A stretch of DNA of 1,545 nt from a plasmid. A program made the translations under genes and the position numbers. Shown here piece by piece: positions 1 to 1,365 of this stretch (its first letter is position 1; every line of letters starts with the position of its first letter). Under the pieces are notes generated by a model. That model had not been told where the DNA came from, did no database searches, and was given only the letters and a program-made list of their open reading frames with translations. Where the stretch lies: assembly GCF_054482525.1 (NCBI RefSeq), contig NZ_JBTHVG010000001.1; one strand, given 5' to 3'.

Positions 1-49
1 ATGTGCAAATGTAATACCGTCACCCGCGACGATATTCCGTTTGCCATCT

Positions 50-74
50 GGTCAGGGCTTCGCCCCGACACCCC
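50..74. repeat. Left copy of a perfect 25-bp inverted repeat (ggtcagggcttcgccccgacacccc)
   Basis: Exact reverse complement of 1366..1390, verified base by base; the match stops on both sides. Confidence 0.9.
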
Positions 75-110
75 GCATCAGTGCGTACGTGCTCAATGTG
101 GTTTCCCGTT

Positions 111-172
111 CTCTTCCGCTTCCTCGCCCACTCGCTCACTAACGTTCGGTCGCTGGGGCTGCGGCGAGCGGT
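111..172 (+). other. ColE1-type primosome assembly site (pas/ssi)-like segment
   Basis: Exact 17-mer ctcttccgcttcctcgc (111..127) and exact 16-mer ggctgcggcgagcggt (157..172), separated by 29 nt of related sequence. This matches my recollection of the pMB1/pUC region just downstream of the ColE1 origin, where the spacing is 27 nt. A short ccgcatcag string sits just upstream (73..81), as in pBR322. Confidence 0.6.
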
Positions 173-476
173 GCCACCTCTCGCATGTTGTCGGTGATTC
201 CGCTGTTGTTCTTCTGGGGATGAGTCGTCAGACAGCCCTTCAAACGCGCTCAGAAGCTCTCAGACGCACGAAACGGGATTTAAATGCCCGTCAGGGCATG
301 GAAGGCGCGAAAAACGCTTACAGAGCGTTTCAGGAGGTCAGGCGCGCCGATACCCCTAGCCAGGGGCTTTCAGGTCGCCAGGAACCGCGTCAGCCCCCTG
401 CAAAGCCCATTTGCACGGTACAGGCAGCCACTCGGTTGGTAGGTGGTCGTAGACCGTCGGTGTTACAGCGATGGGG

Positions 477-526
477 GTCTGGGGTTCTCCCCAGACGGTT
501 TCCGGTTGCGCTCAAGGCGCTGCCGG
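477..526. other. Two adjacent strong stem-loops in a GC-rich, probably non-coding region (candidate structured RNA or origin secondary structure)
   Basis: Stem-loop A: gtctgggg (477..484), loop ttct, ccccagac (489..496), 8 perfect base pairs. Stem-loop B: ccggttgcgc (502..511), loop tcaag, gcgctgccgg (517..526), 10-bp stem with one mismatch and one G-T wobble. Further hairpins at 286..297 (gcccgtcagggc) and 312..330 (aaacgct / agcgttt). Confidence 0.45.
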
Positions 527-666
527 AACCGTGGCGGCTCGGTCGTTCTGGAGATCGGGGAGCAAAAACACGCAAGGGATTTTGAGGCGGCAAAAGAGCA
601 ATGCAGGATAGACAATCATGGTCAGAACGTTAACACGTAACCCCTGATTGTCCGCCTGCCGCTGGC

Positions 667-1146
667 TCAATTTGAAAACATGGCCATGATTCGGCGCTGA
701 ATATCACCGTCTTTGTTGACCAGTGTTTTAGTGACAAACGCCGCGTAGTTTTTAGATGTGTTGTATCCCTTCCAGACTTCATGTGGATCGAGTGCATACG
801 CACAAACCTTACCGGCAACAGGAATTCTGACTAACGCGTTTTTTGATTCTAAGTAGTTGAGCCAGCGCTTAATTGTGCTTCGGCTAACACCCAATTTATC
901 TGCTAAAAACTGCTGATCGGCAACAACAGCACCGCATGAGGGATCTATGTGCTCAGCTAAAAACGAGTAAAGCGGTATTGCTACAACTCCCTGCTTGTCC
1001 TTCGACAGTTCTCGGATCCTTTCCCAGCCCTTCTGATAAACCTGGGTGAATGGGCCGTTATTTTTCGGATCTGGTTCCGATTCTTTGTTTAATTTTTCCA
1101 GTTCTTTTAGACGCTTTTTTCGCTGCTCTTCAGTCCCGATATACAT
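667..1146 (-). CDS. Putative winged-helix DNA-binding protein, 159 aa; candidate plasmid replication initiator and/or autoregulator (Rep-like). Family not verified.
   Basis: Complete ORF on the minus strand: ATG at 1146..1144, stop TGA (tca on + strand) at 667..669, in-frame stop upstream at 1174..1176. GGAG Shine-Dalgarno (ctcc at 1154..1157 on + strand) 7 nt upstream of the ATG. The protein has a charged helical N-terminus (EEQRKKRLKELEKLNKESE) and a typical helix-turn-helix with following wing (ADQQFLADKLGVSRSTIKRWLNYLESKNALVRIP). The Rep function is inferred from context (upstream repeats, AT-rich tract, flanking pas-like and oriT-like DNA), not from recognised sequence homology. Confidence 0.8.
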   Translation of the reverse strand: MYIGTEEQRKKRLKELEKLNKESEPDPKNNGPFTQVYQKGWERIRELSKDKQGVVAIPLYSFLAEHIDPSCGAVVADQQFLADKLGVSRSTIKRWLNYLESKNALVRIPVAGKVCAYALDPHEVWKGYNTSKNYAAFVTKTLVNKDGDIQRRIMAMFSN

Positions 1147-1205
1147 GGTAAATCTCCACGGTCTAATGATGGCTCAAATATAAGCCATCATAGCTCAAAC
1201 GTAAA
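1147..1205 (-). promoter_or_regulatory. Candidate sigma70 promoter and RBS for the 667..1146 gene
   Basis: On the minus strand: -35 TTTACG (+ coords 1200..1205), 17-bp spacer, -10 TATATT (+ coords 1177..1182), then GGAG RBS (1154..1157) 7 nt before the ATG. The -35 is a 4/6 match to consensus; spacing is ideal. Prediction by eye only. Confidence 0.4.
1166..1191. promoter_or_regulatory. Perfect palindrome (9-bp arms atgatggct / agccatcat, 8-bp spacer) overlapping the candidate -10; putative operator
   Basis: Arms at 1166..1174 and 1183..1191 are exact reverse complements; the spacer caaatata (1175..1182) contains the candidate -10 of the minus-strand gene. This arrangement is typical of autoregulated plasmid rep or regulator genes. 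The palindrome is seen directly; operator function is inferred. Confidence 0.5.
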
Positions 1206-1222
1206 CCATGATAGGTCGACCT

Positions 1223-1272
1223 AGCTCACACATGCGTGAGCTAACCTTAGACCATGCATGCGTGAGCTAACC
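1223..1272. repeat. Iteron-like repeat cluster: two identical 16-bp direct repeats (catgcgtgagctaacc) 26 bp apart, the first embedded in a 7-bp-arm palindrome
   Basis: Exact copies at 1231..1246 and 1257..1272. Palindrome agctcac / gtgagct at 1223..1229 and 1236..1242. The core agct(c/a)a recurs at 1192, 1223, 1239, 1265 and 1284. Located just upstream of the candidate -35 of the HTH gene and next to an AT-rich tract (1276..1330). Confidence 0.75.
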
Positions 1273-1335
1273 CATAATGCAAGTAGCTAAAAAATCAATA
1301 ACTTACAAAATCGCCCTTAAATATCTTTTCTGCTG

Positions 1336-1365
1336 AAAGTGTTGCGCAAAGCGGAACACTTTTTT
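1336..1365 (+). terminator. GC-containing hairpin followed by a T-run; intrinsic-terminator-like on the + strand, or alternatively an oriT-proximal inverted repeat
   Basis: Stem aaagtgttgcgc (1336..1347) pairs with gcggaacacttt (1351..1362) with one mismatch, loop aaa, followed by further T residues to 1365. No convincing + strand transcript feeds into it, so function is ambiguous. Confidence 0.3.

Follow-up and report, generated by a model that had tools for sequence, protein, structure and literature searches.

A ColE1 ssiA/n'-pas-like hairpin, predicted to serve as a primosome-assembly site, in a 1545-bp plasmid of the pKL1/Col(MG828) family

The stretch of DNA analysed here, called the window in its full length of 1,545 nucleotides, contains close to its left end a hairpin element that is homologous to the ssiA/n'-pas region of ColE1, shares its structure, is present in a single copy, is conserved throughout its plasmid family and obeys a rule of orientation with respect to replication genes. 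Based upon these observations, we propose that the element is probably a PriA-type primosome-assembly (single-strand initiation) site of the ColE1 ssiA/n'-pas family, which would be active on the minus strand and exposed by synthesis coming from the rep side.

The host plasmid and the match to ColE1

The window is a complete circular plasmid of 1545 bp, a cryptic member of the pKL1/Col(MG828) family from E. coli. In relatives its end is joined directly to its start, some 25 E. coli and Klebsiella plasmids (~1.56 kb) match it over the full length at 96-98% identity, and another 1545-bp record, NZ_CP182202.1, shows 100% identity to it across the 86 nt that were compared, with coordinates unchanged. 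Plasmid pKL1 (NC_002145, typed as Col(MG828)) shows 78-91% identity to the window, which has the further marks of this family, namely a circle of about 1.5 kb, a single HTH RepA gene and repeats upstream of it.

The rep gene is the sole supported gene in the window, where neither an HUH nor a Rep_trans initiator was evident. Its product displays ~86% amino acid identity to pKL1-family Rep proteins (tblastn), substitutions in the gene are concentrated at third codon positions (490/423/831 by position), and it shares its strand with the form of the hairpin that is predicted to be active. An Rfam scan of the window revealed neither RNAII nor RNAI, and nothing else of relevance, the only hit being a weak match to proV (16 bits). 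According to the literature on pKL1, its oriV is situated upstream of rep and has sites for Rep as well as an IHF box (PMC3832669). The corresponding presumed origin of the window (1170-1300) is ~1 kb from the element in the direction of rep and ~400 nt from it the other way round the circle. GC skew was uninformative on the direction of replication for a circle of 1.5 kb.

The limits of the element were given as 111-172 in an earlier note and as 113-174 by the covariance model described below. The window contains a single instance of the gapped pattern CTCTTCCGCTTCCTCGC-N(25-31)-GGCTGCGGCGAGCGGT (111-172, plus strand), whereas shuffles contain none (0 of 200), and the predicted active form, on the minus strand, reads 5'-(GCA)CCGCTCGCCGCAGCCCCAGCGACCGAACGTTAGTGAGCGAGTGGGCGAGGAAGCGGAAGAG-3'. 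The earlier note had described two exact blocks of 16-17 nt shared with pMB1-type origins at the same spacing. The blocks are real: positions 111-127 (17 nt) and 157-172 (16 nt) are identical in a pUC/pMB1-type vector sequence (L020, a contaminant contig). The spacing had to be corrected, since the blocks are 29 nt apart in the window but 27 nt apart in pMB1 and in ColE1; alignment columns 29 and 41 each hold one extra base in the window.

Positions 1367-1308 of ColE1 (NC_001371) align with 111-172 of the window at 82% identity (E 2e-10, pairwise blastn), ColE1-type plasmids in a 7.3-Gb plasmid database match at E 1e-8 to 1e-20, and the copy in pF95-10, a ColE1-like Mob+/Rop+ plasmid, is 98.4% identical to that of the window. 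A covariance model derived from 52 variants scored the window at 77.7 bits (E ~1e-19) and ColE1 at 77.4 bits. It located one copy in each and no second, diverged copy analogous to ssiB. The similarity is far beyond chance; it is also not of low complexity, as the match spans the variable middle of the element, where pairing is kept by compensatory changes. Common ancestry with the ColE1/pMB1 priming signal, as originally suggested, is supported by homology, by the position of the ColE1 copy and by a shared covarying hairpin. A scan for DnaA boxes found none adjoining the element and box counts at chance level in the window.

In the ColE1 record RNAI is found at 645-749 on the minus strand, so that RNAII and the leading strand primed by it follow the plus strand, through ori (~1195) into 1306-1367. 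This puts the ColE1 element at 110-170 nt downstream of ori and on the strand that RNAII-primed synthesis displaces; bom and then rop come next along the leading-strand path. This displaced plus strand corresponds to the minus strand of the window. Reviews locate ssiA/n'-pas in the origin-downstream region of ColE1, beside a DnaA box, and describe how extension by Pol I exposes it, whereupon PriA is recruited for lagging-strand synthesis; ssiA is kept in vectors with a pBR322 origin and in those of the pUC type, the latter having lost ssiB, which lies further downstream (PMC3167613, PMC3640518). The pMB1 segment of pUC-type vectors starts exactly at the element, as seen at the vector junction in L020. 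The limits assumed here for ColE1 ssiA follow indirect statements in reviews, and we take AAGCGG to be the motif on its active strand.

The window also carries a ColE1-type oriT (bom); oriT and element are colinear, arranged and oriented as they are in ColE1. Relative to the element, the oriT match, in the plus orientation, starts at about -160 nt in ColE1 types, at -216 in pF95-10 and at -300 in the pKL1 family. The position of nic in this oriT is presumed from the ColE1 nic sequence. The plasmid has no mob genes, and its oriT would therefore depend on ColE1-like Mob proteins supplied in trans; pKL1 is typed as mobilizable in PLSDB.

Two further repeats were noted in this region. Through a 34-nt inverted repeat (50-83 and 1357-1390; 88% complementary, with an exact core of ~25 nt), the oriT hairpin recurs in reverse at 50-83, ~40 nt to the left of the ssiA-like element. 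The two copies flank ~200 nt across the circular junction, and pKL1-family plasmids keep the reversed one, at which no second nic-like sequence was evident, at -67 to -71 nt relative to the element. Just upstream of oriT is an imperfect 12-bp hairpin (AAAGTGTTGCGC/GCGGAACACTTT; 1336-1364, plus strand) followed by a T run, with AAGCGG included in its loop. A terminator is one possible role for it, a further single-strand signal of the transferred strand another; it was neither recognised by the covariance model nor listed by the terminator scan.

Structure and conservation of the hairpin

Homologues of the element were gathered by two pattern scans, and after removal of chance matches and vector contaminants 96 distinct variants were obtained, of which 52 were aligned. 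The matches discarded from the scan of genome contigs were chance or coding matches in high-GC genomes and cloning-vector contamination. The features are collected in Table 1.

Table 1. Coordinates of the hairpin and of other features in the window, together with filamentous-phage loci that carry the element.
Feature	Position	Strand	Basis or remarks
ssiA/n'-pas-like hairpin element	111-174	- (predicted active strand)	Homology to ColE1 1306-1367; single copy; ColE1 geometry; orientation rule
Outer stem P1, 5' arm CCGCT	116-120		Pairs with 167-171
Internal loop, 5' side TCCTCG	121-126		Invariant in 52/52 distinct variants, partly by construction (block forced by the search patterns)
Inner stem P3, 5' arm CCCAC	127-131		Pairs with 152 and 154-157; C153 bulged
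Conserved apical region TCGCTCACTAACGTTCGGTC, 20 nt, with two-pair mini-stem 138-139/144-145	132-151		Covariation
Inner stem P3, 3' arm G-c-TGGG	152-157		Covariation
Internal loop, 3' side CTGCGGCG	159-166		Near-invariant (positions invariant or at least 90% conserved); block not forced by the metagenome search pattern
Outer stem P1, 3' arm AGCGG	167-171		Covariation
rep, 159-aa helix-turn-helix RepA, pKL1/Col(MG828) family	667-1146	-	ORF list; HTH annotation in near-identical plasmids; tblastn
Repeats and inverted repeats upstream of rep (TAGCTCACACATGCGTGAGCTAACC, two copies); presumed Rep-binding/origin region	1170-1272		Repeat search; pKL1 literature
ColE1-type oriT (bom), inverted repeat GTCGGGGCGAAGCCCTGAC then GTGTATACTGGCTTAA; nic-like GTGTATACTGG/CTTAA	1367-1431	+	91% identity to ColE1 1521-1457
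Filamentous phage and prophage loci with the element (other records)	L156 2210-2940; L193 6530-6585; L202; L212; L250 6001-6057	Packaged strand	Genes for pII nickase, pI/Zot and pIV secretin

Both stems and one apical pair covary among the 52 variants, which is the stem-loop expected of a primosome assembly site. In P1, 96.9% of cells are paired and the two outer pairs covary (C-G 31, A-T 8 and G-C 7 at one; C-G 44 and T-A 6 at the other). In P3, double-sided changes were seen at five of the six pairs tested, with arms such as CTCAT/ATGAG, GTCAT/ATGAC, GTTTAT/ATAAAC and CCTGT/ACAGG; the inner stems of the window and of pKL1 differ in a fully compensating manner (CCCAC/G-TGGG versus GTCGAT/ATCGAC). 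The apical pair 138:145 is G-C in 30 variants and A-T in 20, and covaries across different stem classes. Taken over the 52 variants, 86.5% of cells are paired, versus 74.3±0.8 in shuffles, and 104 cells carry double-sided changes, versus 34±6, a number reached in 0 of 500 shuffles. The covariation score is 0.383, compared to 0.172 in shuffles and at most 0.117 in slid controls. The TCCTCG of the internal loop belongs, on the minus strand, to GAGGAAGCGG.

Folded as a single DNA sequence, neither strand was more stable than shuffles (z = 0.3-1.2), so that thermodynamics alone would have missed this hairpin. The choice of strand was undecided by counts of G-T against A-C appositions (4 vs 6), and the paired minimum free energies of both strands indicated equal folding (p = 0.10). 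Since wobble counts and energies do not pick a strand, the geometry of replicons and phages was used for this purpose.

Within the pKL1 family, positions 91-180 are conserved at 90-94%, versus 55-80% for rep. Judged by this conservation and by the compensatory differences in the stems, the element is under selection in the family.

Adjoining it is a non-coding, GC-rich block (173-600) with many short perfect hairpins (for example at 285-300, 311-331 and 476-497), which was found in 674 plasmid records and shows the highest conservation within the plasmid family (85-94%, versus 55-80% for rep). It gave no Rfam match, and it is joined to the element also in plasmids with a different, RepL-annotated rep gene. 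A 194-amino acid ORF (1-585, plus strand) covers the element; some database records, among them certain RefSeq ones, name it 'rep protein', and the labels 'replication protein' and 'hypothetical protein' are also in use. Coding was considered as the cause of the conservation and rejected, as relatives contain stops and frameshifts in this frame and substitutions show no codon-position bias (197/247/214). The ORF is probably not a gene, and the 'rep protein' of some RefSeq records, which comprises the element and the adjoining block, is thereby corrected as a likely mis-annotation.

Distribution, orientation and proposed function

The element was found near the origins of ColE1-like, ColE2-like, Rep_3, pHW126/RepL-like, pKL1-like, IncX and IncI2 replicons. 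The strand reading 5'-CCGCTCGCCGCA...GAGGAAGCGG-3', which is the minus strand of the window, coincides with few exceptions with the sense strand of rep, RNAII or phage genes, and would be the displaced strand in plasmids or the packaged strand in phages. In the orientation of the window, ColE1 ori homology lies to the right of the element, at +97 to +139, wherever it adjoins, and without exception in the same orientation among dozens of cases. Counting elements, which are not independent plasmids, the ColE2-type rep is on the opposite strand in 53 of 55 and ends 110-260 nt to the right; at its end, ~85 nt from the element, is a sequence which we take, from its motif, to be a ColE2-like origin. 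The same relation to the element holds for the pKL1-type rep (26/29), the Rep_3 initiator (13/18), the pHW126-like or RepL-annotated rep (7/7), two types of small HTH rep (8/8) and the pII gene of filamentous phages (6/6). It also holds for the IncX-like, IncX4 and IncI2 plasmids (3/3).

The exceptions are 5 of the 18 Rep_3 cases, 2 of the 55 ColE2-type cases and L217, a plasmid with a pKL1-type Rep in which elements occur in both orientations. The latter, the main exception to the rule, has three copies per unit of ~5.6 kb, one of the CTCAT type and two of the CCCAC type with a duplicated TCGCTC in the apex. The three larger plasmids (L246, IncX-like; L247, IncI2; L248, IncX4; 34-40 kb) have a previously unannotated element 0.7-0.9 kb from rep, with rep on the opposite strand; the IncX-like and IncX4 plasmids are typed as conjugative and the IncI2 plasmid as mobilizable.

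In filamentous phages and prophages the element occupies the gene I-IV spacer, with all phage genes on the opposite strand. Filamentous phages package their coding strand, and the 5'-CCGCTCGCCGCA...GAGGAAGCGG-3' form is thus on the DNA that needs conversion to duplex, the sole strand where priming of a complementary strand can take place. This placement agrees, independently, with the geometry of ColE1 and suggests that the active form is the window minus strand. One filamentous-phage contig has three tandem copies 339 nt apart, and one chromosomal filamentous prophage of E. coli with the element adjoins dinG-ybiB. Matches to the element are present in 2115 of 5426 complete E. coli genomes, and 209 chromosomal places were counted in this set of complete genomes. 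Matches in the phage database were solely mislabelled plasmid or vector fragments.

From this comparison we propose the following. Once single-stranded, the minus strand would fold into an imperfect hairpin with a 5-bp outer stem (116-120/167-171), a 5-bp inner stem (127-131/152-157) and a 20-nt apex, in which the invariant internal loop presents CGCCGCAG opposite CGAGGA. By homology with ColE1, PriA would bind this hairpin and, with PriB, DnaT and DnaC, load DnaB and then DnaG, and the primosome would start the complementary (lagging) strand on the displaced strand. If the displaced strand is the rep-sense (minus) strand, leading-strand synthesis should arrive from the rep side, that is from the right; the entry from the right suggested in the earlier note accords with an independent, cross-replicon strand rule. 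A leading strand proceeding rep-wards from the repeats upstream of rep would reach the element after ~1 kb and expose the minus strand. Assembly of a primosome at this point could start the copying of the displaced stretch and provide DnaB for the remainder of the circle. Were replication of a strand-displacement or rolling-circle-like mode, the element would act as a single-strand origin.

Several points count against a priming site. While the strand of the element fits the comparative rule (rep-sense), the presumed origin is ~1 kb away, versus 85-170 nt in ColE1 and ColE2 types, and there is no adjacent DnaA box. An iteron or HTH-Rep plasmid may load DnaB at its origin, with no need for a PriA site. 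Plasmids like pHW126 can dispense with a similar ssi-like palindrome, and its loss leads to higher copy number and multimers (PMC6854812; bioRxiv 10.1101/2022.12.05.519187), which need not represent a simple priming defect.

A wider reading, which we consider unlikely, is that the hairpin is an orientation-locked 'second-strand start' module of at least eight unrelated replicon types and of filamentous phages. In the pKL1 family it would form the left edge of a ~500-bp non-coding block (~90-600) which is better conserved than rep and has been swapped between plasmids with different Rep proteins. If true, this would mean strand-displacement or rolling-circle-like replication with the element as single-strand origin, or a portable cis-acting replication core.

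Perhaps the element serves mobilization and not vegetative replication, the oriT-ssiA block priming the retained donor strand as the plus (T) strand is unwound from nic (~1420) rightwards, or a plus-strand form priming in the recipient. The colinear and co-oriented arrangement of oriT (1367-1431) and element, as in ColE1, is consistent with this, as are the lack of mob genes, which means that the oriT must be served in trans, and the near identity (98.4%) of the element to that of the mobilizable pF95-10, which suggests exchange of an oriT-element block. We nevertheless hold this to be improbable, since the element is present with no nearby ColE1-type oriT in ColE2-, Rep_3-, pHW126/RepL- and IncX-type replicons and in filamentous phages, its orientation in these oriT-less contexts tracks the replication genes, and pKL1-Rep plasmids with no adjacent oriT retain it (L164, L210). 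Priming in the recipient is excluded unless the plus form is also active, because the active form is, by homology, on the non-transferred strand.

It is very improbable that the element is a passenger, acquired with oriT from a ColE1-like plasmid and unused by the replicon of the window. Order and orientation as in ColE1, the distance of the presumed origin and the dispensability for replication of similar ssi-like sequences in pHW126-like plasmids (PMC6854812) would all suit such a relic, but the element lies within the best-conserved part of the family, the stem differences among family members are compensatory and do not resemble decay, and its orientation relative to rep is the same in 26 of 29 pKL1-Rep contexts.

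We give least credence to a structured RNA within the rep-sense transcript or to a duplex or cruciform protein-binding site for control of copy number or multimers: the element is on the rep or RNAII sense strand in nearly all contexts and so could be transcribed, deletion of the ssi-like palindromes of pIGRK and pIGMS31 results in higher copy number and multimers, and covariation alone does not distinguish DNA from RNA hairpins, but there is no match to an Rfam family, G-T(U) pairs, at 4 of 471 cells, are nearly absent, which is unusual in RNA stems, the placement relative to rep (on its 3' side, on its 5' side, or between genes in phages) is too variable for any one role in a transcript, the packaged-strand position in filamentous phages fits a function in single-stranded DNA, and reviews describe the ColE1 homologue as a single-strand DNA primosome site (PMC3167613, PMC3640518).

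Comparison with known systems

The closest known system is ColE1 ssiA (rriA; the n'-pas or factor Y site of pBR322 and pMB1), to which the window element is homologous, with the same hairpin architecture and the same invariant internal-loop sequences. As in the window, ColE1 has one copy per plasmid and its oriT is on the same side and in the same orientation. The replicons differ: that of the window is of the Rep/repeat type of pKL1, with neither RNAII/RNAI nor an adjacent DnaA box, and the origin, 110-170 nt away in ColE1, is presumably ~1 kb away in the window. The ColE1/pMB1 subtype has two mismatched pairs in the inner stem, whereas the inner stem of the window is well paired (CCCAC/G-TGGG) and the element has 2 extra nt.

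Palindromes termed ssi-like have been described in pHW126, pIGRK, pIGMS31 and ColE1-like plasmids of Rahnella and Citrobacter. The pHW126 family resembles the window plasmid in that its members are small enterobacterial plasmids with an HTH Rep and repeats, and has such a palindrome near its origin. Loss of the pHW126-type ssi raises copy number and causes multimers and instability (PMC6854812; bioRxiv 10.1101/2022.12.05.519187). Among our loci, L062, L166 and L244 have variants with the same flanks (CCGCTTCCTCG...TGCGGCGAGCGG) 200-250 nt upstream of a pHW126-like or RepL-annotated rep. From these relatives it would appear that the published pHW126/pIGRK ssi belongs to the same family as the window element, though the former is directly upstream of origin and rep and the latter ~500 nt downstream of rep.

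The primosome assembly site of phiX174, a hairpin between genes F and G, has the same proposed mechanism, being a PriA-recognised hairpin of single-stranded DNA that nucleates the PriA-PriB-DnaT-DnaC-DnaB-DnaG primosome. No similarity of sequence or structure to phiX174 was detectable, the best score with the covariance model being 8.5 bits (E 0.4). The single-strand origins (sso) of rolling-circle plasmids and the minus-strand origins of filamentous phages are likewise orientation-specific hairpins on the displaced or packaged strand, from which the complementary strand is started, but are considered here only as functional analogues: classical sso types and the Ff minus origin employ RNA polymerase and not PriA, and their sequences appear unrelated to the element.

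Set beside these systems, the element falls into a known class as an ordinary and very widespread member, previously unannotated in these records, and the understanding of ColE1-type priming is unchanged by it. A well-conserved cis element is now annotated in cryptic E. coli plasmids that belong to a very common family. Plasmid biologists gain, as by-products, a consensus structure backed by covariation and a strand rule with respect to rep, RNAII and phage genes, by which the displaced strand, and hence the direction of replication, can be predicted in uncharacterised small replicons.
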